A stretch of DNA of 64,000 bases, from NCBI GenBank assembly GCA_001781125.1, contig MFKT01000021.1:5178-69177 (forward strand), written 5' to 3'. Shown piece after piece: positions 14,033 through 63,480 of the stretch. The position numbers and the translations under genes were made by a program. Below the pieces are notes generated by a model. That model had not been told where the DNA came from and made no database searches. It saw only the letters and a program-made list of their open reading frames with translations. Position 1 is the first letter of the stretch. Each line of letters begins with the position of its first letter. Source of the DNA: Candidatus Kaiserbacteria bacterium RIFCSPHIGHO2_01_FULL_53_29 (GTDB lineage: Bacteria; Patescibacteriota; Minisyncoccia; Phycocordibacterales; UBA2100).

Positions 14033-14062
14033 ACCTTAGAAGCGTCGCCTCTAAGGTAGGCC
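14033..14062. repeat. REP-like palindrome (REP1, left flank of RAYT1)
   Basis: ACCTTAGAAGCGTCGCCTCTAAGGTAGGCC hairpin. Shares the core GCGTCGCCTCTAAGGTAGG with the right flank. Confidence 0.55.
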
Positions 14063-14066
14063 TTAA

Positions 14067-14759
14067 TTACTTAAGATTTTCGATCATTGGTGATACCTCT
14101 CCGTAATAAGCCCGTGCATCGGAAAGCATTTTCTGCACTGGCACTTGATATGACCGGATTAGATCAACTTGTTCCGGGTCAAGGATCGCGTGCTCGGGCC
14201 GTACCATGCCAGAGTAGTCGGGGAAGCTTGCGTATGGATATGCCCGTATTTTTCTCTCTAGTCTCTGCATGTTTTTAACGAAACCGGATTTCCATTTAGG
14301 TTCGAATAATTCGCACGGATTCATGTGGACATAATCGACCGCACGATGCATATACCGATCGTCCGAGATGTGTTTCGATCTAAACGGCTTGATGAATAAA
14401 TTTCCCACACGGTCGTGCAGATTGTTGAAATAGAGTGCATAGCCCGTTCCGATCTTATGCATAAATCGAGAAATGCCGTGCTCCACAATTTCTTTCATCA
14501 ACAGGTGGATGTGGTTCGGCATCAGACAAAATGCACCAATGGCTACTAACGGTGACTTTCTTGGAAGAGTAAATGTCTCAGCGTATGAAACATGCTCGAA
14601 CAATGGGCGTTGAAGCGATTTTGTGTCGTTTGCCAAATAGAGGAGTTGCATGAACCGGCGATAGTGCGCGTCCTCCTCAAAGGTTATTCTTTTGTCGATG
14701 CCGCGATTGAAACAATGGAAATATTCATCTATTGCAAATGGAGTACGTCTGTAACTCAT
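14067..14759 (-). CDS. IS200-like Y1 HUH transposase, REP-associated tyrosine transposase (RAYT) type
   Basis: HuH motif LMPNHIHLLMKE. Catalytic-Tyr region YALYFNNLHDRVGNLFIKPFRSKHI. Paralogue of 34051..34728. Flanked by REP1 palindromes. Start taken at the internal ATG (MSYRRTPFAIDEYFHCF), which aligns with the paralogue; the track start codon at 14792 is TTG. Confidence 0.7.
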   Translation of the reverse strand: MSYRRTPFAIDEYFHCFNRGIDKRITFEEDAHYRRFMQLLYLANDTKSLQRPLFEHVSYAETFTLPRKSPLVAIGAFCLMPNHIHLLMKEIVEHGISRFMHKIGTGYALYFNNLHDRVGNLFIKPFRSKHISDDRYMHRAVDYVHMNPCELFEPKWKSGFVKNMQRLERKIRAYPYASFPDYSGMVRPEHAILDPEQVDLIRSYQVPVQKMLSDARAYYGEVSPMIENLK

Positions 14760-14797
14760 GAACTTATTGTAGCAACAAAATATGCTCGACAATAAGG

Positions 14798-14841
14798 TTA
14801 CCTTAGAGGCCTACCTTAGAGGCGTCGCCTCTAAGGTAGGT
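14798..14841. repeat. REP-like palindromes (REP1, right flank of RAYT1; two tandem units)
   Basis: TTACCTTAGAGGCCTACCTTAGAGGCGTCGCCTCTAAGGTAGG contains the perfect palindrome TACCTTAGAGGCGTCGCCTCTAAGGTA. Confidence 0.6.
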
Positions 14842-14883
14842 TCATGGAGGCCTACCGGTGCGGGAGGAAGGTACAATGGTCGA

Positions 14884-16227
14884 GTGAAATTATCAGACAT
14901 CACCGGAGTACGCATCAAAAAAGTGGCGGTGGTTGCGCAGGTCGTTGCGTCCTCCGCCGTCGCTGTGGGTGCTGCGGCTGTGGTGGCAGCGACGCGCGTA
15001 GCTTCTCCGCATAATAGCCACTCCATCGTCGAGCATGAGCTCGAGAAAGGGACGGAACTTTCGGTCATACGGCTCGTCGATCTCCTTATCGAGCGTGCGC
15101 AAGCGGCGCACGCATCAGATATCCATCTCGATCCGCGCGCAGGCTCGGTGGTAGTCAGGCTCCGTATCGACGGGATCCTGCAGGATGCTCACACGCTTCC
15201 CTCGAGCATTCACCATGAGGTTATCTCGCGCATCAAGATCCTTTGCGGCTTGCGCACCGACGAGCACCAAGCGGCACAAGACGGCCGTTTCCGCATCACG
15301 CTTGAGAGCGCTCTCTCGGTCGACGTGCGTGTTTCCATCGTGCCTACGTACCACGGAGAAAATGCTGTCTTGCGGCTTCTCTCTGATCAAGCAGAGGAAT
15401 TCACGCTCGAAACACTAGGGCTTACGCCAGAGAATCGCGCGAAGATCCTTCGCGCGATCAATAAGCCGCACGGCATGATCCTCGCGACCGGCCCGACCGG
15501 AAGCGGAAAGACGACGACACTCTACACGCTCGTTAAAATGCTCAACGTCCCCGCTGTTTCCATCATTACTGTTGAAGACCCCATCGAGTATTCGATATCA
15601 GGTATCAATCAAATACAGATCAACCCGCGCACGGGTCTCACATTCGCCAATGGCCTTCGGAGCATTCTAAGACAAGACCCCAACATCATCATGGTGGGTG
15701 AGATCCGGGATACCGAAACCGCCGGTCTTGCCGTCAACACGGCGCTTACCGGTCACCTTGTGCTCTCGACACTCCACACCAACGATGCGCCGACGACTCT
15801 ACCGCGTCTTCTCGACATGAAGATCGAACCATACCTCATCGCCTCGACCGTGAATATTGCCATCGGCCAGCGACTTGTCCGGCGCATCTGCAAACAGTGT
15901 AAGGAAGAACGCCCGATGACAAGTGCAGAAGCGGGGAGTCTTTCTGAGATCATGTCTGCGGAGCTTATCGAACTACCGGGCGTCTTTTACGCAGGTTCGG
16001 GCTGTGAGGCATGCGCGGGCACAGGCTATCGCGGGCGCGCGGGCATTCACGAAGTCATGGAGATCGACAATGATATTCGTGAGGCGATACTTCACAAAAC
16101 ATCTGCCCGCGAGATCCGTGATGTCGCCATACGCCAAGGCATGACGCCTCTTGTAGTTGATGGATTCCACAAGGCAGCACAGGGCCTGACCACGATCGAA
16201 GAGGTCTTGCGCACGCGCTATGAATAA
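14884..16227 (+). CDS. pilB: type IV pilus assembly ATPase PilB (GspE family)
   Basis: Walker A GPTGSGKTT; GspE core VIRLVDLLIERAQAAHASDIHLDP; C-terminal tetracysteine motif CKQC...GCEACAGTGYRGR. The track ORF start 14782 reads through REP1-R. Start reset to GTG 14884, which has a GGAGG 16 nt upstream; start uncertain. Confidence 0.8.
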   Translation: MKLSDITGVRIKKVAVVAQVVASSAVAVGAAAVVAATRVASPHNSHSIVEHELEKGTELSVIRLVDLLIERAQAAHASDIHLDPRAGSVVVRLRIDGILQDAHTLPSSIHHEVISRIKILCGLRTDEHQAAQDGRFRITLESALSVDVRVSIVPTYHGENAVLRLLSDQAEEFTLETLGLTPENRAKILRAINKPHGMILATGPTGSGKTTTLYTLVKMLNVPAVSIITVEDPIEYSISGINQIQINPRTGLTFANGLRSILRQDPNIIMVGEIRDTETAGLAVNTALTGHLVLSTLHTNDAPTTLPRLLDMKIEPYLIASTVNIAIGQRLVRRICKQCKEERPMTSAEAGSLSEIMSAELIELPGVFYAGSGCEACAGTGYRGRAGIHEVMEIDNDIREAILHKTSAREIRDVAIRQGMTPLVVDGFHKAAQGLTTIEEVLRTRYE

Positions 16228-23387: not shown

Positions 23388-24590
23388 GTGAAAACCCGCA
23401 TACTCATGTTCGGATGGGAATTTCCGCCCTACAACAGCGGCGGACTTGGTGTTGCATGCCTCGGGCTCACCAAAGCGCTCTCGGAGCTTGGCGTGGAGGT
23501 GATTTTTGTGATGCCCAAAAAATTGGACATCAAAACTCCGTGGGCGCGCATCGTCTTTGCAGACGATGCGCGTATCGATGTGCGCGCTGTTAATTCGATG
23601 CTCAAGCCGTACGTCACGAGCCGGTCATATACACGGGACGGGGGCATTTACGCGGATGATCTCTTGGGTGAAGTACGTCGGTATGCTGCGCTTGGCGGCG
23701 CGATTGCGCGCGAGGAACAGTTCGATGTCATCTATGCCCACGACTGGCTCTCATTTGGCGCGGGTATCGAGGCGAAGCGTGCTACGGGAAAGCCCCTTAT
23801 CGTGCATGTGCATGCGACCGAATTCGATCGCTGCGGCGGTCCATCGGGTATCAACAGAGAAGTCTATGAGATCGAGAAAGAGGGGATGGAACAGGCTGAT
23901 GTGGTAATCGCAGTTTCCGAACTCACCAAAAACATCATCGTTCGCGAGTACGGGATTCGTCCCGAAAAAGTGCGCGTCGTCTACAATGGTATTGACGAAG
24001 GGACGGCACCATCGAGCGGCGGCTCGCTGCCCCGTTTGCGTAGCTTGAAAGCATCCGGGTATCGGCTGGTACTCTTTCTTGGCCGTGTGACGCTTCAAAA
24101 AGGTCCGGATCATTTTCTTCGCGCGGCCAAACGCGTCCTCGATCGCAATCCGCACGTCCTCTTTATCCTTTCAGGAGCGGGTGACATGGACGATCAGGTG
24201 ATGCGCCTTGCAGCTGAGCTCGGCATCGGGGGCCACGTATTTTTCACCGGATTTTTGCACGGAGCGGATCGGCACGAAGTGTATAAGGCGGCGGATCTCT
24301 TCGTCATGCCCTCCGTTTCCGAACCTTTTGGCATCACAGCGCTCGAAGCGATGAAGCTCGGCACGCCAGTACTGATCTCGAAACAATCGGGTGTTGCCGA
24401 GGTCGTGAAGCACGCGCTCAAGGTCGACTTCTGGGATGTCGATGAAATGGCCAATAAGATACTATCGGTCGTCGGGTACCCAGGGCTTCGACAGGCGTTG
24501 GCAGAAAATGCCGCGCGGGAGGCAGAATATCTCACATGGGCGCAGGCTGCGCAGAAAGTGAATGGCATTGTCCACGAACTTGTACAATAG
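23388..24590 (+). CDS. GT4/GT5-type glycosyltransferase, glycogen/alpha-glucan synthase-like
   Basis: N-terminal FGWEFPPYNSGGLGVACLGLTKAL and C-terminal GT-B fold motifs (EPFGITALEAM). Context is an alpha-glucan gene cluster. Confidence 0.65.
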   Translation: MKTRILMFGWEFPPYNSGGLGVACLGLTKALSELGVEVIFVMPKKLDIKTPWARIVFADDARIDVRAVNSMLKPYVTSRSYTRDGGIYADDLLGEVRRYAALGGAIAREEQFDVIYAHDWLSFGAGIEAKRATGKPLIVHVHATEFDRCGGPSGINREVYEIEKEGMEQADVVIAVSELTKNIIVREYGIRPEKVRVVYNGIDEGTAPSSGGSLPRLRSLKASGYRLVLFLGRVTLQKGPDHFLRAAKRVLDRNPHVLFILSGAGDMDDQVMRLAAELGIGGHVFFTGFLHGADRHEVYKAADLFVMPSVSEPFGITALEAMKLGTPVLISKQSGVAEVVKHALKVDFWDVDEMANKILSVVGYPGLRQALAENAAREAEYLTWAQAAQKVNGIVHELVQ

Positions 24591-33381: not shown

Positions 33382-34014
33382 ATGTCCATTCTTACCAAAA
33401 AGGAAATTCTCGCGCGGGTAAAGAAGGGGAACATTGTCTTTCATCCGGGTCTCGATAGATTCCAATTGCAGACGCATGCAGTAGACCTCCGACTTGGCTT
33501 TACATTCCTCATCCCGAAATCCTGGAAAATGACGCCGAAGGGCAGGCAAGCGCTTTCGATAGACCCTCTCCGTGATCATGGACCCGAATACTTCGATGTG
33601 ATAGAGCTCGAACAAGGCCAGTCCTTCGACCTTCTGCCGCAAGAGTATGTCCTCGTCTCCACATTCGAGACGATAAAAGTGCCCAACGACCTTATGGCTG
33701 TCTTGTATCCGCGTTCATCAGTCAATCGCAAAGGGCTTTCGGTAGACTTGACCGGTATCATTGATAGCGGCTACGAGGGCCCGCTCACACTTCCCATTCG
33801 CAACAACACACGCTCACAGACCATCCAGCTCCATCCGGGCGAGCGATTTTGCCAGCTTGTTTTCGAAGAACTCAAACACAAAGTAGAACCCAAGAAATCC
33901 CGCTGGCATCAAAAGGACGTGGTGGATAAGGGCAAAAAAGAAAAAGCGGCCGAAATGAAACTCGTCTTTAGCGGCGACCTCAAAAAATTAAAAACCGACT
34001 TCTCTGCTCACTAA
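33382..34014 (+). CDS. dcd: dCTP deaminase (dUTPase-fold)
   Basis: MSILTKKEILARVKKGNIVFHPGLD...VDLRLG dCTP deaminase N-terminus. Confidence 0.8.
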   Translation: MSILTKKEILARVKKGNIVFHPGLDRFQLQTHAVDLRLGFTFLIPKSWKMTPKGRQALSIDPLRDHGPEYFDVIELEQGQSFDLLPQEYVLVSTFETIKVPNDLMAVLYPRSSVNRKGLSVDLTGIIDSGYEGPLTLPIRNNTRSQTIQLHPGERFCQLVFEELKHKVEPKKSRWHQKDVVDKGKKEKAAEMKLVFSGDLKKLKTDFSAH

Positions 34015-34036
34015 CGATGAGATGACATCTCATCGT
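34014..34036. repeat. REP-like palindrome (REP2, left flank of RAYT2)
   Basis: Perfect palindrome ACGATGAGATG-A-CATCTCATCGT starting at the dcd stop codon. Confidence 0.55.
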
Positions 34037-34050
34037 GGTACACTTGGGAC

Positions 34051-34728
34051 ATGGCAAATCGGCCTCCTTTTGAGTTAGGCGAGTGGTATCACTGTTTCAG
34101 CCGCGGTGTCGAGAAAAGAAAGGTATTTGAGAACGAGCTAGACGCAAATCGTTTTCTCATGCTTCTGTACTTAGCGAATGGAACAAAGCCCATACAGATT
34201 TTTAATACATACAAACCGGAACTTTCAAAAGCACTCAAAACTGATCGGGGAACTCCGATTGTTGCGGTTAGTGCGTATTGTCTGATGCCCAATCATTTTC
34301 ATTTGCTATTAAAAGAAGTCGTTGAGGGCGGCATTTCATCGTTTATGAGGAAGTTAGGAATTGCATACACAATGTATTTTAACGAAAAGAATGAACGTGT
34401 AGGGAATCTGTTTGTAAAACCCTTCCGGTCGCGGCGGATTGGTACCGATCGTTATTTCCAACGCGTTCTTCAATACATTCACTGCAATCCAGCTGAATTA
34501 TACGAGCCAGCTTGGAAATCTGGATCAGTGCGAAATATTCGCACACTGGAGAAGAAACTTGTTGATTATCCCTACTCAAGCCTCCGAAATTATTCATTGC
34601 CAAAGAGCAATAACAGGATTCTTTCAAAAGATGGATTTGATGTTGCCGATCATCCTTCGGCCGCCAGAATGATTGAAGATGCTCGATCCTATTATGCGGA
34701 CATTGCAGAAGACAGATTCGAGCGCTAG
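34051..34728 (+). CDS. IS200-like Y1 HUH transposase, RAYT type (paralogue of 14067..14759)
   Basis: LMPNHFHLLLKE HuH motif; YTMYFNEKNERVGNLFVKPFRSRRI Tyr region. Flanked by REP2 palindromes. Confidence 0.7.
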   Translation: MANRPPFELGEWYHCFSRGVEKRKVFENELDANRFLMLLYLANGTKPIQIFNTYKPELSKALKTDRGTPIVAVSAYCLMPNHFHLLLKEVVEGGISSFMRKLGIAYTMYFNEKNERVGNLFVKPFRSRRIGTDRYFQRVLQYIHCNPAELYEPAWKSGSVRNIRTLEKKLVDYPYSSLRNYSLPKSNNRILSKDGFDVADHPSAARMIEDARSYYADIAEDRFER

Positions 34729-34729
34729 T

Positions 34730-34754
34730 CACGATGAGATAACATCTCATCGTG
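34730..34754. repeat. REP-like palindrome (REP2, right flank of RAYT2)
   Basis: CACGATGAGAT-AA-CATCTCATCGTG. Confidence 0.55.
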
Positions 34755-34780
34755 TTCTCCAATATTGGTATAGTCCTGTA

Positions 34781-35293
34781 ATGACTAAGCCGGTAATAGC
34801 CGCGGTCGTGGCGATAGGGAAGAACCGCGAGCTTGGAAAGGCGGGCAAGCTTCTGTGGCACATTCCGGATGATTTAAAGCGATTTAAGGAGCTGACGCTC
34901 GGGCACCCCATCATCATGGGTCGCAAGACATTTGAATCAATCCTCGGCTATACCCAGGGCAAGCCGCTGCCGGAGCGAACGAACATAGTCGTTACCCGTC
35001 ATAACGACTTCGTAAGTCGTTATGACAATGTTGTTATTGCGCATTCGTTGGAGGAGGGGATAGAAAAAGCCAAGGCATTGGACAATGTGGAAATCCATAT
35101 CGGCGGGGGAGCGGAGATCTACGAACAAGCCCTCGCTAGAATAGACAAGCTCTACCTGACTCTCATTGATGCGGAAGGTGAAGCCGATTCGTTTTTCCCC
35201 GCGTACGAAACCGAATTCACCAAAAAAGTATTTGAAGAAGAGCACGAGTGGAACGGCATCAAGTACCGCTTCGTAGATTTGGAGCGGCCATAA
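34781..35293 (+). CDS. folA: dihydrofolate reductase
   Basis: VIAAVVAIGKNRELGKAGKLLWHIPDDLKRFKELTLGHPIIMGRKTFESI. The track ORF start 34673 lies within REP2; ATG 34781 gives a typical DHFR N-terminus. Confidence 0.75.
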   Translation: MTKPVIAAVVAIGKNRELGKAGKLLWHIPDDLKRFKELTLGHPIIMGRKTFESILGYTQGKPLPERTNIVVTRHNDFVSRYDNVVIAHSLEEGIEKAKALDNVEIHIGGGAEIYEQALARIDKLYLTLIDAEGEADSFFPAYETEFTKKVFEEEHEWNGIKYRFVDLERP

Positions 35294-37799: not shown

Positions 37800-38840
37800 T
37801 TACTTTGCGAGACTTTTGAGAACTTTTAGATACAGATTTTCAACTATTTTCTGCTGCGCTTGGCCGGTTTTGACGTAGTGGTCAAGGCCTGGGGCGGCGT
37901 TGATTTCGAGGACCCAATACTTATTCGGCTTGTCAGTAATCGTTCCATCCACCATGAGATCGACGCCGCAGAGGCGCAGGCCCATGTCGCGAGTGAGCTT
38001 GATCGCGAGCTTTTTGAATGCCGGATGAATTTGTTTTGTTACATCTACTGAATCCCCGCCGCTTGAGAGATTTGCGTTGTCGAGAAGAAACACTTGCTCA
38101 CCGCGGGAGGGAATATTTACCAAGGACCGTCCTTGGTATTTCAGTTTTGCGGCGATGCGCGGGTCGTTGAGCTTGATACGTGTGTCGCGGCTGGAGGCGA
38201 TAAACTCGCGGGATTTTTTTGCGAGCAGTTGTTTGATGGTTGAGTGGCCGTTCCCCACGACGTTGAGGGGAATTCGCTCGTATGCCGAAATGACTTCTTT
38301 GTCCAAAACGACGATGCGATAATCTTTGCCAGTGACTACTCGTTGCACGAGCGCGACACGGTCGTGTTTGAAAATCGCGCGCATCGCGCGATAAAATTCT
38401 TTTTTGTTGCGGACAAGGGCTACGTCGATGCCTTGTGTCCCGCTATTGGGTTTGACGATAACGGGGAAACTCTTCGACGAGCTCAGGGCAAGGCCGAGCC
38501 GTCGCGCATAGCGGTAGGCTGCATGGATATTTCGCTTTGACTCGATCGCTTTGCACCATTCATCGGAAAAGAATGTTTTGCCCGGAATCGTCGGGTAACC
38601 CATGCGGCGCATGAAGAAATTTGCATAGCCCTTGTCCTTGGCGATGTCTGAAGCGCCGACCGGATTGAGGTCGAGCGTGTTGTAGCGGAAATAACGGTTC
38701 AAGCCATTCTTGTAGCGGATCTGCCCGGCAATATTCCACTCGGGCTCGAGGGTGACATGCGCACCGATGCGACGGGCTAGTTTTTTCAACATTCCTGCGA
38801 GCACTAGGTGTTCCGACTTTCTCCTCATGTGCGTTATCAT
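37800..38840 (-). CDS. ATP-grasp ligase (RimK / cyanophycin-synthetase N-domain-like)
   Basis: ATP-grasp motifs FPVIVKPNSGTQGIDV, DNANLSSGGDSVDVT, YWVLEINAAPGL. Confidence 0.55.
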   Translation of the reverse strand: MITHMRRKSEHLVLAGMLKKLARRIGAHVTLEPEWNIAGQIRYKNGLNRYFRYNTLDLNPVGASDIAKDKGYANFFMRRMGYPTIPGKTFFSDEWCKAIESKRNIHAAYRYARRLGLALSSSKSFPVIVKPNSGTQGIDVALVRNKKEFYRAMRAIFKHDRVALVQRVVTGKDYRIVVLDKEVISAYERIPLNVVGNGHSTIKQLLAKKSREFIASSRDTRIKLNDPRIAAKLKYQGRSLVNIPSRGEQVFLLDNANLSSGGDSVDVTKQIHPAFKKLAIKLTRDMGLRLCGVDLMVDGTITDKPNKYWVLEINAAPGLDHYVKTGQAQQKIVENLYLKVLKSLAK

Positions 38841-38897: not shown

Positions 38898-41864
38898 ATG
38901 GTAAATCGCATTGCAGTCTCATCAAAGATCGAAGATGCACGCGCCAGAAGCTATCTCCACACACTCAAAAATTTGTTTCCCAAAAGCGGCCTCACGGCCG
39001 CTTCTGTCGTTCAGGCCTACACGGTCGATGCTCAAGTATCAGCACCAGATCTTGAGGAAGCTGCGCAACGGCTCACCAACCCAATAACGGAGGTTTCCTC
39101 CGTAGAGAATATTCCGACACCACAGACATACGCGTATGCGATTGAGATAGGATACCTGCCGGGCGTCACCGACAATGTAGGGCGCACGGCGCGCGAGACG
39201 ATAGAAGACTGCCTCGGCAAGAAATTCAAAGACGACGAGCACGTGTATTCGTCCGTCTTTATTTTCCTTGAAGGAAAGATAGAGGCGCGCGAAGCTGGAA
39301 GCTTCGCGCGCGAACTCCATAATCCGCTCATCGAGCGGGCAACTGTTTTTGCAGCGGGAAAGAAGTTTCCCGTCATCGTCCCACAAGTCAGACTTGTGGG
39401 GAAAACCCATACCAGCGAGATCGATCTCGATGTCTCAGACGAAGAATTGCGGAAGATGAGCAAAGAAGGAATCGAAGGGAGAGGCCCGCTCGCGCTCCCG
39501 CTCGCTTCGATGAAAGTGATACGCGGCCATTTTAAGAAATTAGGTCGCAATCCCACCGACGTCGAGCTCGAATCACTTGCGCAGACGTGGTCCGAGCACT
39601 GCAAGCACACGATATTTGCCGATCCGCTCGACGAAATAAAAGAGGGGATTTACCGCCGCTACATCAAGGGCGCAACGGAGAGAATACGAAAAGCAAAAGG
39701 CAAGAAGGATTTCTGCGTCTCGGTGTTCAAGGATAATTCGGGCGCCATTGCATTTGATGACAAGTATCTCGTAACGCACAAAGTGGAGACGCACAATTCT
39801 CCTTCGGGTCTCGACCCATTCGGCGGTTCCGTCACCGCCATTGTCGGCGTCAACCGTGATTGCCTCGGATTCGGGCTTGGCGCGAAACCGATCGCCAACA
39901 CCTATGGTTTCTGCGTCGAGGACCCGAACGACGCAACGGAATTGTTTAGAGATAAAGGTAAGCAACAGCCTCTCCTCCCTGCGCGCCGCATTCTCGAGGG
40001 CGTCGTCAAGGGCATCAATGCGGGAGGCAATCAAAGCGGCATCCCCACACCTCTTGGATTCGTTGCCGTTGATCCGTCCTATCGCGGCAAGCCGCTCGTC
40101 TTCGGCGGCACCGTCGGCCTGATCCCGCGTAAAAGCCCTGCGGGCTCACGCGGCTCCGCCCGTAAACTATATGCAAAACGTGCGCGACCGGGCGACTACA
40201 TCGTGATGCTCGGCGGACGTGTCGGACTCGATGGCATCCACGGCGCCACGTTCTCGTCCGAATCGCTCTCTGCCGGTTCGCCCGCGACAGCGGTTCAGAT
40301 AGGCGATCCCATCACCCAGAAAAAACTTTCCGACATGCTCATACGCGAAGCACGCGACGCGGGGCTGTACAACTCCATCACCGATGACGGCGCAGGCGGG
40401 CTCTCCGGTTCAGTGGGCGAAATGGCACGTGAAAGTGGAGGAGCGCAAGTCGACCTCGAGAAAGTCCCGCTCAAATATCCAGGCCTTGCGCCTTGGCAAA
40501 TATGGCTCTCCGAATCTCAAGAGCGTATGACGCTTGCGGTGCCGAGGGGAAAATGGTCTGCATTCAAAAAGATATGCGATAGACACGATGTCGAAGCCAC
40601 ATGCATCGGAGAGTTTACGAAATCGAAGCGTTGTATCGTTCGGCACAACGGAAAGTCTGTTATGGACATTGCGCTCGACTTTCTGCACGAAGGCAGGCCT
40701 GTCGAGCAGCAAAAAAGTGTCAGGCCGAGAAACCATCAAGGCGACGCCTCGGTGGTTGGAAGGGGAAAGACCGATCTCGCGGAAGCGCTTCTGCGAATGC
40801 TTTCGGGACCAAACGTCGGTTCAATTTCGTTCATTTCACAACAATACGACCACGAAGTGCAGGGCACGTCCGTGACGAAGCCTTTGCAGGGAAGGGGGCG
40901 GGTCAATGCGGATGCAGCTGTTTTGCAGCCGTTATCGGATTCACAAAAGGGCATCGTACTCGCACATGGTTATGCGCCTCGGTATTCGCAGATTGATACG
41001 TATGCGATGGCAGCCGCTTCTATCGATACAGCGGTACGCAACGCCATCGCTGCCGGAGCTTCTCTCGAGTACCTCGCCATTCTCGACAATTTCTGCTGGT
41101 CCTCGAGCGAGAAACCGGAACGACTCTACGAGCTGAAACAATCCGCCAAAGCTTGCTACGACACTGCGGTCGCCTACGGCACGCCATTTATTTCCGGCAA
41201 GGACAGTATGTTCAACGATTTCCGCGGATATGATTCGAAGGGGAAAAATGTCCACATCGCGGCATTGCCGACACTGCTCGTCTCTGCGATAGGGGTTATT
41301 CCCGATGTATCGAAAGCGATGACACTCGACTTCAAGCGTGTGGGTGACCTCGTGTATCTTATCGGGGAAACGAATGATGAACTGGGCGCATCGGCATATT
41401 TCTCGATGCCTGAAGAAATTGGACGTCCGACGTCCAATTTTGGGGGGCAGGTCCCGTGTGTAGATACGAAGAAGAATTCAAAAGCCTACGGAGCAGTATC
41501 GAAGGCAATACAAAAAGGACTCGTGGCTTCTGCTATTGGCGTGGGGCGCGGCGGACTCGCCGTCGCACTCGCCAAATCTGCAGTTGCAGGGCAGCTCGGC
41601 GTTCAGGCCGACCTCACCAAACTCCGCGGCAGCGCTAAAAGTGCAGAAGCGATTCTTTTTTCTGAAAGCCAAGGGCGCATGCTTCTTTCTGTGCCGCGCA
41701 GCGCGCAAAAGGAATTTGAGAAAGTATGTCAAGGCGTCGCCTTGACACAGATAGGAGAGGTAATCCAACCCGCATCAGTATCTATCGAACTGCCGAAGGC
41801 AAAAGTCGAATTGCCACTTTCCGCGCTGACCGAAAGCTACAGGTCGTTCTTCAAGAATTGGTAA
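38898..41864 (+). CDS. purL: phosphoribosylformylglycinamidine synthase II (PurL) with N-terminal PurS-like extension
   Basis: PurL/AIRS-fold repeats; about 230 extra N-terminal residues (PurS-like). Immediately followed by purQ. Confidence 0.8.
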   Translation: MVNRIAVSSKIEDARARSYLHTLKNLFPKSGLTAASVVQAYTVDAQVSAPDLEEAAQRLTNPITEVSSVENIPTPQTYAYAIEIGYLPGVTDNVGRTARETIEDCLGKKFKDDEHVYSSVFIFLEGKIEAREAGSFARELHNPLIERATVFAAGKKFPVIVPQVRLVGKTHTSEIDLDVSDEELRKMSKEGIEGRGPLALPLASMKVIRGHFKKLGRNPTDVELESLAQTWSEHCKHTIFADPLDEIKEGIYRRYIKGATERIRKAKGKKDFCVSVFKDNSGAIAFDDKYLVTHKVETHNSPSGLDPFGGSVTAIVGVNRDCLGFGLGAKPIANTYGFCVEDPNDATELFRDKGKQQPLLPARRILEGVVKGINAGGNQSGIPTPLGFVAVDPSYRGKPLVFGGTVGLIPRKSPAGSRGSARKLYAKRARPGDYIVMLGGRVGLDGIHGATFSSESLSAGSPATAVQIGDPITQKKLSDMLIREARDAGLYNSITDDGAGGLSGSVGEMARESGGAQVDLEKVPLKYPGLAPWQIWLSESQERMTLAVPRGKWSAFKKICDRHDVEATCIGEFTKSKRCIVRHNGKSVMDIALDFLHEGRPVEQQKSVRPRNHQGDASVVGRGKTDLAEALLRMLSGPNVGSISFISQQYDHEVQGTSVTKPLQGRGRVNADAAVLQPLSDSQKGIVLAHGYAPRYSQIDTYAMAAASIDTAVRNAIAAGASLEYLAILDNFCWSSSEKPERLYELKQSAKACYDTAVAYGTPFISGKDSMFNDFRGYDSKGKNVHIAALPTLLVSAIGVIPDVSKAMTLDFKRVGDLVYLIGETNDELGASAYFSMPEEIGRPTSNFGGQVPCVDTKKNSKAYGAVSKAIQKGLVASAIGVGRGGLAVALAKSAVAGQLGVQADLTKLRGSAKSAEAILFSESQGRMLLSVPRSAQKEFEKVCQGVALTQIGEVIQPASVSIELPKAKVELPLSALTESYRSFFKNW

Positions 41865-55599: not shown

Positions 55600-55696
55600 C
55601 GTCGAAAGCAACGGCTTTCGACGCGATTTGCGCCGTTGCGCAAATCGCCCGTACGCGCCGGGCCGCCCGCACACTTCGTGCTACGGGCGGCCCGGC
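55600..55696 (+). other. array of three consecutive perfect hairpins (structured RNA or terminator cluster candidate)
   Basis: CGTCGAAAGC-aacg-GCTTTCGACG; GATTTGCGC-cgtt-GCGCAAATC; GCCGGGCCGCCCG-14nt-CGGGCGGCCCGGC. Not repeats of one another; no T-tract. Confidence 0.4.
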
Positions 55697-56042
55697 TTAC
55701 ATGATGACCTTCTTCAGATCATAGATATTTTGATCCATGACGTGATGCTAGCGTCTAACAAAGAGCATCTTCGAAAGAACTTACTTCTGGAGTAATTTTC
55801 GCAGGAGCGCAGTGAAATTAAAGTGAAGAAATTATACCCAGAGCGCAAGAACTGCCAAATAATTAATAGGAACCATAGTAAATATCTAGGAAGTTAGCCG
55901 CTAATGGGAGTATTGTAACATACGGTAGGGAAGTGGATAACCGAGTAGCGCGCTTCATGAGTGGGTACATACTGGTGGGGTATAAACAGCAATCCTGTAA
56001 CGGGGTCGAGTTTACCAACCAATTTTTTCTCCACATACGCAT

Positions 56043-62487: not shown

Positions 62488-63480
62488 ATGTCCGTTCGAG
62501 CAGTTTCCACGCCAAATATCGCCCTTATTAAATATTGGAGCAATCGTAATGAAGAATTGCGTTTGCCAGCCGCAGATTCGCTCTCGATGACACTCGACCG
62601 ACCGACGGTCGAAGTTGTCGTCGAATATGCGGAGCGATTCACTGCTCGCAGTTTCGAACCGGACGGTACGGCACGCATTCTCACCGACAAGGAGAGTAAG
62701 CGACTGGAGAAGCACTTCCTTCTCGTAAAAAAATATCTTGACACGATCGGCGCGGCTGTATTTCCTGCTTCCGTTTCGCTCGAAATCCGCTCAAAGATCC
62801 CCAAAAGTGTCGGTCTCGCCTCATCGGCGGCAGTCTTTAGTGTTCTTGCAGAAGCCTATGGGAGCTTTGCTAAAAAATTGTCGCGGCGCGATGTCAGTAT
62901 TCTCGCGCGTCTCGGCTCCGGCTCGGCGAGCCGGAGCGTCTTTGGAGGATTCGTTGCGATGATAGCCGGAGAGGGCGAGACAATCGGTGCCTCGTATGCG
63001 GAGCAAGTCGCACCGGAAAATCACTGGAAATTATGGGATATCATCATCGTGCCATCCCACAAGGAGAAAGAAACGGGATCCACCGAAGGCCACGCGCTCG
63101 CACGCACGAGCCCGCTTTTTGAAGCGCGGCTTCGGGAAATTCCCAATCGCCAAAAAATGTGTATTGAAGCGATCCGGCAAAAAGATTTTGAGAAACTTCA
63201 AAGAGTTGCTGAAGAAGACTGCCTTGATATGCACGCGGTCATGGCCTCGAGCACCCCATCGCTTCAGTATCTCTCCGAGGAGACGCATCGCATCATCCGC
63301 GACGTTGAGGAACTCCGAACTCGCGAGCATCTGGCAGTGCTCTACACCATGGACGCCGGCCCCACCGTGCATCTCATTTGCGACGAAAGCGCACTGCCGA
63401 GCGTGCGTGCGTATGCCCATACGCAGAAGGACTGCACGGTCTTTGAGGCTAGCATCGGAAGGGGATCACATACTTTGTGA
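62488..63480 (+). CDS. mvaD: diphosphomevalonate decarboxylase family
   Basis: PNIALIKYWSNRNEELRLPAADSLSMTLD; GLASSAAVFSVL. Confidence 0.75.
   Translation: MSVRAVSTPNIALIKYWSNRNEELRLPAADSLSMTLDRPTVEVVVEYAERFTARSFEPDGTARILTDKESKRLEKHFLLVKKYLDTIGAAVFPASVSLEIRSKIPKSVGLASSAAVFSVLAEAYGSFAKKLSRRDVSILARLGSGSASRSVFGGFVAMIAGEGETIGASYAEQVAPENHWKLWDIIIVPSHKEKETGSTEGHALARTSPLFEARLREIPNRQKMCIEAIRQKDFEKLQRVAEEDCLDMHAVMASSTPSLQYLSEETHRIIRDVEELRTREHLAVLYTMDAGPTVHLICDESALPSVRAYAHTQKDCTVFEASIGRGSHTL

Follow-up and report, generated by a model that had tools for sequence, protein, structure and literature searches.

A vertically inherited, probably REPtron-like unit of a RAYT-class gene and two direct hairpins between dcd and folA in Kaiserbacteria

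Repetitive extragenic palindromes (REPs) and the REP-associated tyrosine transposases (RAYTs) that accompany them are known mainly from Proteobacteria, where the repeats are abundant and extragenic and their function is debated. In the classical REPtron, the unit of gene and hairpins, the flanking copies are reportedly inverted. The palindromic elements of Rickettsia are said to be tolerated in frame within genes. Structure 4ER8 represents the REP-associated tyrosine transposase of Escherichia coli, TnpA-REP, bound to its hairpin (PMC3479197). A further group was described as TnpA-Y1 subclass 2.1 (Quentin et al. 2018, PMC6006769), to which RAYT group 1 (Bertels et al. 2017, PMC5581495) and TIRYT (Di Nocera 2013, PMC3733652) correspond. 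Some members of subclass 2.1 carry GGGG[AT][CG]A[CG] terminal inverted repeats, and the 16-mers flanking RAYT group 1 genes are low-copy, with about 12 per replicon (PMC5581495). REPs within genes are already on record (PMC3733652). Candidate Phyla Radiation (CPR) hosts are not listed in these surveys (PMC6006769, PMC5581495, PMC3733652), and our literature search found no paper linking REP or RAYT to CPR or Patescibacteria. Here we analysed 64,000 nucleotides of Candidatus Kaiserbacteria bacterium RIFCSPHIGHO2_01_FULL_53_29 (assembly GCA_001781125.1, contig MFKT01000021.1, positions 5,178 to 69,177), hereafter the window, in which a RAYT-like gene, RAYT2, lies between two hairpins, REP2-L and REP2-R, and separates dcd from folA. 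We put the probability at roughly 75% that the locus is a vertically inherited REPtron-like unit, that is, a single-copy RAYT-class gene between two direct cognate hairpins that seeds and homogenises a small hairpin family.

All features from dcd to folA are encoded on the + strand. The dCTP deaminase-like gene dcd (33382..34014; Pfam DCD, 121 bits) ends with the stop codon TAA (34012-34014), which abuts and overlaps the left hairpin REP2-L (34014-34036; ACGATGAGATGACATCTCATCGT, that is ACGATGAGATG-A-CATCTCATCGT) with its perfect 11-bp stem. The open reading frame (ORF) of RAYT2 (34051..34728) encodes a Y1 HuH tyrosine transposase-like protein of 225 aa and is followed by the right hairpin REP2-R (34730-34754; CACGATGAGATAACATCTCATCGTG, that is CACGATGAGAT-AAC-ATCTCATCGTG), which stands in direct orientation relative to REP2-L. 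The whole unit, from REP2-L to REP2-R, measures 741 bp, and 26 nt lie between the end of REP2-R and the ATG (34781) of the dihydrofolate reductase gene folA (34781..35293; Pfam DHFR_1, 160 bits). Folded as single-stranded DNA (ssDNA), REP2-L reached -9.3 kcal/mol (z -4.8) and REP2-R -11.1 kcal/mol (z -5.7). A degenerate 23-mer matched the window twice, solely at these hairpins, versus 0.02 matches expected by chance, and none of 100 shuffles equalled this count. An earlier sequence-only reading of this DNA had proposed a RAYT paralogue at this position, bracketed by these palindromes, and in this respect it was correct.

We assigned RAYT2 to the RAYT class of Y1 HuH proteins because it combines the HuH and Y-x-x-x-N-P motifs with a Pfam Y1_Tnp score above the cut-off (31.3 versus 23 bits; the sole Pfam domain reported) and a fold match to 4ER8. 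The HuH motif reads N81-H82-F-H84 and the tyrosine motif Y142-I-H-C-N-P; together with FQ137 and YSS177, RAYT2 thus shows the motif set NHFH, FQ, YIHCNP and YSS. Aligning 24 homologues, whose divergence reaches 45% identity, gave 40 invariant columns. The HuH and Y-I-H-x-N-P motifs were invariant, FQ and SS conserved. RAYT2 has a C-terminal helical extension of about 75 aa. The top Foldseek match of its confident AF2 model (pLDDT, predicted local distance difference test, 84.7) was 4ER8_A (E 7e-6, TM 0.67 on target), with the TnpA proteins of IS608 and ISDra2 next. Sequence searches of the PDB with RAYT2, both as single sequence and as profile, returned no significant match. The NCBIfam model NF047646 (REP_Tyr_transpos) scored 39.2 bits for RAYT2 and 40.2 bits for its paralogue in the window, RAYT1, and its equivalog cut-off of 80 was not reached. 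Because of the blank PDB sequence searches and this low NCBIfam score, RAYT2 represents a divergent branch. At the level of motifs, it resembles TnpA-Y1 subclass 2.1 and RAYT group 1.

The tie between gene and hairpins became apparent when the locus was compared with its relatives (numbered L011 onwards). In all orthologues examined, the RAYT gene is flanked on both sides by its cognate hairpin. To the left and right of each gene, the hairpins match each other exactly or almost exactly (the left arm of L084 contains a single mismatch), and the two share loop and strand in eight of eight genomes; in the window, the pair differs at the first loop base (GAC/AAC). Between genomes, the stems vary: they are of the form CGATGAGAT.. 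in the window, L017, L067 and L081, CAATGAGAT.. in L011 and L018, CAGTGAGGT.. in L013 and CAATGAGGT.. in L084. These differences are paired, compensatory changes. Among 16 flanking copies from nine RAYT genes, 90.9% of the cells were paired and 9 of the 13 stem pairs had changed on both sides, a covariation score that none of 500 shuffles equalled (slid controls: at most 49% paired).

The window contains a second gene of this kind, RAYT1 (14067..14759, - strand, 230 aa), with hairpins of its own. The REP1 hairpin downstream of it (14034..14056; CCTTAGAAGCGTCGCCTCTAAGG) has one stem mismatch, while the upstream one (14810..14840, with the CCTTAGAGGCGTCGCCTCTAAGG-type sequence at 14814-14836; CCTACCTTAGAGGCG-T-CGCCTCTAAGGTAGG) forms a perfect 15-bp stem; the REP1 core is GAGGCGNCGCCTC. 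That is, RAYT1 is flanked by CCTTAGAGGCGTCGCCTCTAAGG-type hairpins, unlike RAYT2 with ACGATGAGATGACATCTCATCGT/CACGATGAGATAACATCTCATCGTG, as the sequence-only reading had stated, and no further full copy of REP1 or REP2 was found within the 64-kb window. The same reading held that the paralogues share the core catalytic motifs and diverge elsewhere. The two proteins are 46% identical over 219 aa and conserved over their full length, beyond the motifs alone. The RAYT1 clade and a third clade, represented by L082, pair with GAGGCGWCGCCTC cores, the RAYT2 clade with GAG(A/G)T cores. Judged from these sequences, the compensatory stems and the clade-specific cores support the proposal that RAYT and hairpin evolve as pairs.

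Around these other RAYT genes we made several additional observations. A partial direct duplication of the left arm (ACCTTAGAGGCCTACCTTAGAGGCG) precedes the upstream REP1 hairpin and a further AGGCCTACC lies downstream of it (window 14797-14860). A hairpin at 8357-8377 has the identical GAGGCGACGCCTC core as REP1 with a different outer stem. In L082 (GCA_001783445.1), the third-clade RAYT is located after guaA between ACGAGGCGTCGCCTCGT-type hairpins, a copy of which occurs inside an rsmH-like gene (1876-1900). Within 5 kb, another Y1_Tnp gene and a DDE transposase are encoded.

We scanned the relatives' genomes for dispersed copies with CRATGAGATNNCATCTCATYG. Since perfect arms were required, decayed copies would have been missed, and counts from metagenome contigs are lower bounds (the known two-match contig C687J35174_10001457 was not returned). 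The scan yielded 41 loci, about 33 of them in metagenome-assembled genomes of Kaiserbacteria type and 8 probable chance matches in unrelated phyla. Four relatives' genomes carried, in addition to the two flanking copies, three to five dispersed copies each. All 16 dispersed copies matched the flanking variant of their own genome with regard to stem (CA/CG) and loop (GAC/GTC or AAC/GTT), for which the chance expectation is about 0.5^16, and L025 holds a half-converted intermediate (a CA...CG copy). The dispersed copies are single hairpins and not inverted-pair REPINs, the paired REP elements described below. In five places, REP2-type hairpins stand 12-20 nt from a hairpin of a second family, GCAATGAGGCGWCGCCTCATTGC or AACGACTTCGTAAGTCGTT, an arrangement like that of bacterial interspersed mosaic elements (L036 404-460, L043 5114-5177, L063 1605-1668, L069 9856-9920 and L044 4493-4553).

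The position of the unit is old. Ten loci (L001-L010) belong to the same organism (99-100% identity) and are uninformative on evolution; the exact RAYT2 protein occurred on 23 contigs, in constant context. More distant genomes share the order thyA-dcd-RAYT-folA, with RAYT identities to the window of 72% (L011), 68% (L018), 65% (L084) and 60% (L038/L081). In L017 and L067 (66-68%) the RAYT gene adjoins folA, and in L013 (64%) a distance of 3 kb separates the two within the same neighbourhood. Hence, at least four other Kaiserbacteria genomes have the slot between dcd and folA filled, and RAYT stands beside folA in two more. RAYT identity to the window falls in the range of the identities of tmk, thyA, dcd and folA, the ORF is intact in all orthologues (224-229 aa), and relatives of RAYT2 on plasmids and phages reach at most 31% identity. 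In L086, a more distant member of the Paceibacterota, we found neither RAYT nor hairpin upstream of folA. Thus, the unit is an old, vertically inherited resident, probably fixed between dcd and folA before the sampled Kaiserbacteria diverged.

The sequence-only reading had regarded RAYT2 and its hairpins as a REPtron inserted into the thymidylate operon. Pfam confirmed thyA, dCMP deaminase, tmk and glyA around RAYT2, and the identification as a RAYT with a hairpin of its own holds. The insertion event is not supported, because relatives whose RAYT is as little as 60% identical have the orthologous slot filled and because RAYT identity tracks that of the neighbours. As evidence against itself, that reading had named the case that distant relatives carry this RAYT between dcd and folA but no REP elsewhere; RAYT does occupy this place in distant relatives, but copies of the hairpin occur elsewhere in their genomes. 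Apparent interruptions of thyA in L003/L004 turned out to be scaffold gaps (runs of N) and were discarded as insertions.

A relative with dcd directly before folA, as an insertion would predict, was found once. In L083 (GCA_964362175.1), 58 nt separate dcd from folA, and this gap contains a lone hairpin (ATGCAATGAGGTCAGACCTCATTGCAT) followed by the -10 box of folA. Its folA and tmk are 80% and 85% identical to those of the window. L083 is nested among RAYT-bearing genomes, and the hairpins on the two flanks repeat in direct orientation, so that RAYT was most simply lost secondarily, through a deletion between its own hairpins. With its solo hairpin retained, L083 fits such a loss better than a site that was never occupied.

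The hairpins are placed between genes in a regular manner. Both flanking units follow the order stop codon, hairpin, TAnnnT box, 6 nt, next ATG; in L011, the dcd orthologue stops with a TGA within the hairpin. The putative -10 boxes, TACACT preceded by TGG (34039..34044, + strand) and TATAGT within TGgTATAGT (34769..34774, + strand), precede the start codons of RAYT2 and folA, respectively. A TAnnnT box stands at equal distance before the ATG of RAYT2 in all orthologues, and the arrangement after the right hairpin is kept in orthologous loci. TAnnnT also occurs at -12 to -14 in many window genes that lead transcription units; RAYT1, RAYT2, folA, thyA, dCMP deaminase, purL and others have it 6-8 nt before the ATG and lack a Shine-Dalgarno sequence. 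This suggests that leaderless transcription from TAnnnT boxes is widespread in the organism. RAYT2 and folA may accordingly each possess a putative promoter of this leaderless type. Neither putative -10 box was called by a scan for the sigma-70 consensus, for which a -35 box is needed, and a terminator consensus scan called neither flanking hairpin. As RAYT2 and folA apparently have -10 boxes of their own, the unit breaks no reading frame and no needed co-transcription.

How such a unit might work can be outlined on the model of TnpA-REP from E. coli and IS608 TnpA, from whose homology we infer the binding, cleavage and mobilisation or homogenisation of hairpins by RAYT2. The hairpins, located at transcription-unit boundaries, would extrude from ssDNA, for example from the lagging-strand template. 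RAYT2 would recognise stem and loop in a sequence-specific manner, and would cut and rejoin at the hairpin foot by means of Y142 and a metal bound by H82/H84. This activity would seed identical hairpins, as a small family, at other sites of the genome and keep the family in register.

A large part of this family resides inside genes. Among about 34 distinct dispersed sites in the relatives (L016-L056, L058-L078), at least 16 lie in frame within genes, most of which were confirmed by Pfam; host genes are pheT, tsaD, miaA, purD, purH, def, atpG and a lyase gene of the fumarase/aspartase class. The in-frame copies encode x[DN]EM[TSL]SHx. The remaining sites are tiny intergenic gaps, with the hairpin often across stop and start codons. 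Several in-frame sites recurred, namely in pheT (3 genomes), tsaD (4) and miaA (2). Of 120 aligned PheT orthologues, about 100 show a beta-turn of 5 aa where about 20 carry a palindrome-encoded segment of 9 aa at the same point. These segments derive from different hairpin types and read CNEMTSHC, CSEVRPHC (TGCAGTGAGGTCAGACCTCACTGCA in DNA), RDEVTPHR, CDEATPHR and others. According to a rough neighbour-joining tree of 117 orthologues, the pheT segment was absent at the root and underwent at least 13 gains or losses.

The folA gene next to RAYT2 provides a parallel case. It contains an in-frame hairpin of a third family (34998-35026, + strand; GTCATAACGACTTCGTAAGTCGTTATGAC, that is GTCATAACGACTT-CGT-AAGTCGTTATGAC) with a perfect 13-bp stem that encodes HNDFVSRYD. 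In six folA orthologues, the loop is 2 aa shorter at this point. Of 120 orthologues, about 25 have a hairpin of the HNDFVSRYD type, and others have different palindrome-encoded segments in the same loop (MMEIVSPSS, SDEVRPHR, others). The 19-mer core of the folA hairpin recurs twice in L044, beside a REP2-type hairpin in L063/L069 and in folA of L083. Some folA products deviate at the N-terminus: P0243, P0339 and P0341 are extended by about 30 aa that include Cys/His-rich motifs (CPLHHQRRPCRIC), whereas in P0254 and P0258 the extension is the translated upstream hairpin, which points to mis-called starts. Intragenic REPs as such are not new; what is unusual here is the recurrence at one codon position together with the lineage-matched sequence.

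Perfect hairpins are common in the window as a whole. With a stem of at least 10 bp and a loop of at most 6 nt, we counted 18, whereas shuffles gave an expectation of 0.55; most have a sequence of their own within the window, and most lie within long ORFs, four of them in purL. In addition to the one at 8357-8377, examples are found at 15434-15458, 23545-23572, 38118-38138, 39285-39311, 39380-39400, 41416-41440, 41727-41747 and 62915-62937. The purL hairpin at 39285-39311 (GCGCGCGAAGCT-gga-AGCTTCGCGCGC) is matched, at the orthologous offset, by a hairpin of the Paceibacterota genome L086 (4943-4967; CGCGCGAAGCC-gaa-GGCTTCGCGCG), in which the innermost pair has changed from T-A to C-G in a compensatory manner. 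This sequence comparison suggests an old, selected intragenic structure. An ORF-poor stretch at 54.9-58.0 kb contains three consecutive hairpins at 55600-55700 (CGTCGAAAGC..GCTTTCGACG, GCGATTTGCGC..GCGCAAATCGC and CCGGGCCGCCCG..CGGGCGGCCCGG). Neither an Rfam scan nor a tRNA scan of the window gave a match.

Several findings weigh against a REPtron-like unit. Among them are the NCBIfam score below its cut-off and the lack of significant matches in the PDB sequence searches. The flanking hairpins are direct and not inverted, and no GTAG or CGTC tag was present at the hairpin foot in the flanks examined. The copy number is tiny. In the window organism we know two REP2 copies, counted within the 64 kb, where degenerate copies were absent as well, so that the status of REP2 as a repetitive element in this organism is unproven. 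The low GC content of RAYT, which runs through the orthologues, could be taken as a mark of foreign origin. Finally, two loci hint at a role of the hairpin that is independent of RAYT, namely the solo hairpin persisting in L083 after the gene was lost and the hairpin of a different family that precedes folA in L013.

These two loci lead to the most serious alternative, which does not exclude a REPtron-like unit: the hairpins might primarily be punctuation of the host, serving as terminators or insulators, or as RNA or DNA structures at gene boundaries and in mRNAs. RAYT2 would then be a domesticated factor that binds or maintains hairpins, or a mere neighbour, and the two flanking hairpins would serve to mark where the transcripts of dcd and RAYT2 end, just upstream of leaderless promoters. 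In favour of such a role, each hairpin comes immediately behind a stop codon and immediately ahead of a TAnnnT box, and the hairpins before folA in L083 and L013, the excess of mostly unique perfect hairpins in the window and the compensatory change in purL point the same way. However, no U-tract follows the hairpins, in line with the silent terminator scan, and the same 21-27-nt sequence is found within coding regions, where termination would be harmful. The hairpin sequence also follows the RAYT lineage and is homogeneous in each genome, neither of which a generic structural role requires. We consider punctuation unlikely as the primary explanation.

An autonomous insertion sequence of the IS200/IS605 type, recently transposed into the thymidylate cluster, would account for the Y1 transposase fold, the compact length of 741 bp and the subterminal hairpins, which occupy one strand at the two ends as they do in IS608. 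It would also account for the GC content of the RAYT2 gene, which at 0.43 forms a trough of about 11 points below the window (0.54). We rejected this trough as a sign of recent arrival, since it is present in every orthologue of the conserved slot: RAYT GC lies 4-11 points under its context in every genome examined (L011-L084; RAYT1 and RAYT2) and is a persistent trait of the family. The gene is found as a single copy at a constant locus, in a slot conserved to 60% protein identity, its tyrosine motif is Y-x-x-x-N-P and not the Y-x-x-x-Q of TnpA-IS200, tnpB is missing and the left and right hairpins are identical. A recent insertion sequence is thus largely refuted. Equally improbable is an inert relic, a once-mobile gene whose remains persist by drift and are inactive now: the very low copy number and the loss of the gene in one lineage without obvious consequence would suit it, but the ORF is intact in all orthologues, the 40 invariant columns include the HuH and tyrosine residues, and the hairpins remain perfect, covary and, where dispersed, are homogeneous in each genome.

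Beyond the REPtron-like unit itself, we offer a broader and speculative proposal. Kaiserbacteria might keep a small set of perfect hairpins at fixed orthologous positions, that is, at transcription-unit boundaries and, in frame, in surface loops of the products of essential genes such as pheT, tsaD, miaA, folA and purL, where RAYT paralogues would write, replace and homogenise them until each copy fits the present specificity of the enzyme. The hairpins would then be DNA or RNA punctuation that is specified by a protein and maintained by the host, rather than selfish repeats of extragenic space. If this doubtful proposal were true, the same loop would have been re-targeted many times, as would be illustrated by the at least 13 changes that 117 orthologues show at a single pheT codon position. 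Irrespective of it, a streamlined CPR genome holds a RAYT-class gene whose motif class was earlier reported without REPs, together with a very small hairpin family. With so few copies, each site can be traced across genomes, and whether RAYT moves, replaces or merely binds hairpins is open to comparative genomics and to ssDNA biochemistry. For annotation, the locus carries two warnings: what looks like an insertion in an operon may have resided there since ancient times, and a short in-frame palindrome in a CPR protein is not necessarily an assembly error.

Compared with the E. coli TnpA-REP/REPtron system (PMC3479197), RAYT2 shares the Y1 HuH fold, for which TnpA-REP is the best structural match, and the Y-x-x-x-N-P motif. 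Both systems have one gene copy per genome, vertical inheritance and co-evolution of hairpin and protein, and in both the gene is bracketed by a hairpin, which in the relatives of the window organism is found elsewhere too. The differences are considerable: in the structural alignment RAYT2 is 14% identical to TnpA-REP, and its 225 aa include the C-terminal helical extension. REP2-type hairpins are short and perfect, with stems of 10-15 bp and no GTAG tag, unlike E. coli REPs. The flanking copies are direct, the family comprises a handful rather than hundreds, and of the dispersed copies in relatives about half lie inside genes.

Subclass 2.1 (PMC6006769, Table 1) is closer in its motifs, since NH[YF]H, FQ, Y[IV]HxNP and SS all have their equivalents in RAYT2, and the median length in the subclass is 238 aa; the low copy number of the flanking 16-mers is a further point in common. 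A C-terminal HTH (Bac_DnaA_C-like) domain belongs to the description of the subclass, and for RAYT2 Pfam listed Y1_Tnp as the sole domain. Yet this subclass was reported to lack REP-like hairpins beside the gene, whereas RAYT2 has perfect hairpins on both sides. The TnpA proteins of the IS200/IS605 family (IS608, ISDra2) share the fold, the hairpins on one strand at both ends and, presumably, the chemistry of ssDNA cleavage and rejoining. They differ in their Y-x-x-x-Q motif (PMC6006769, Table 1) and their length of about 150 aa, and the elements themselves, unlike the RAYT2 unit, come in many near-identical copies, spread by horizontal transfer and have distinct left and right ends.

Like intragenic REPs (PMC3733652), the in-frame palindromes of Kaiserbacteria occur in known and often essential genes, presumably in regions that encode loops. 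Unlike those REPs and the Rickettsia elements, they are single hairpins of 21-29 nt that encode about 8 aa, and they occupy the same loop in many lineages with a lineage-specific sequence that matches the flank of the respective RAYT. REPINs are inverted REP doublets that number tens to hundreds and are extragenic; REP2-type copies are singlets, few and in many cases intragenic. With the REPIN-RAYT systems of Pseudomonas and Enterobacteria (Bertels & Rainey; bioRxiv 10.1101/2021.07.10.451892), the unit nevertheless shares long vertical persistence and repeats at orthologous positions.

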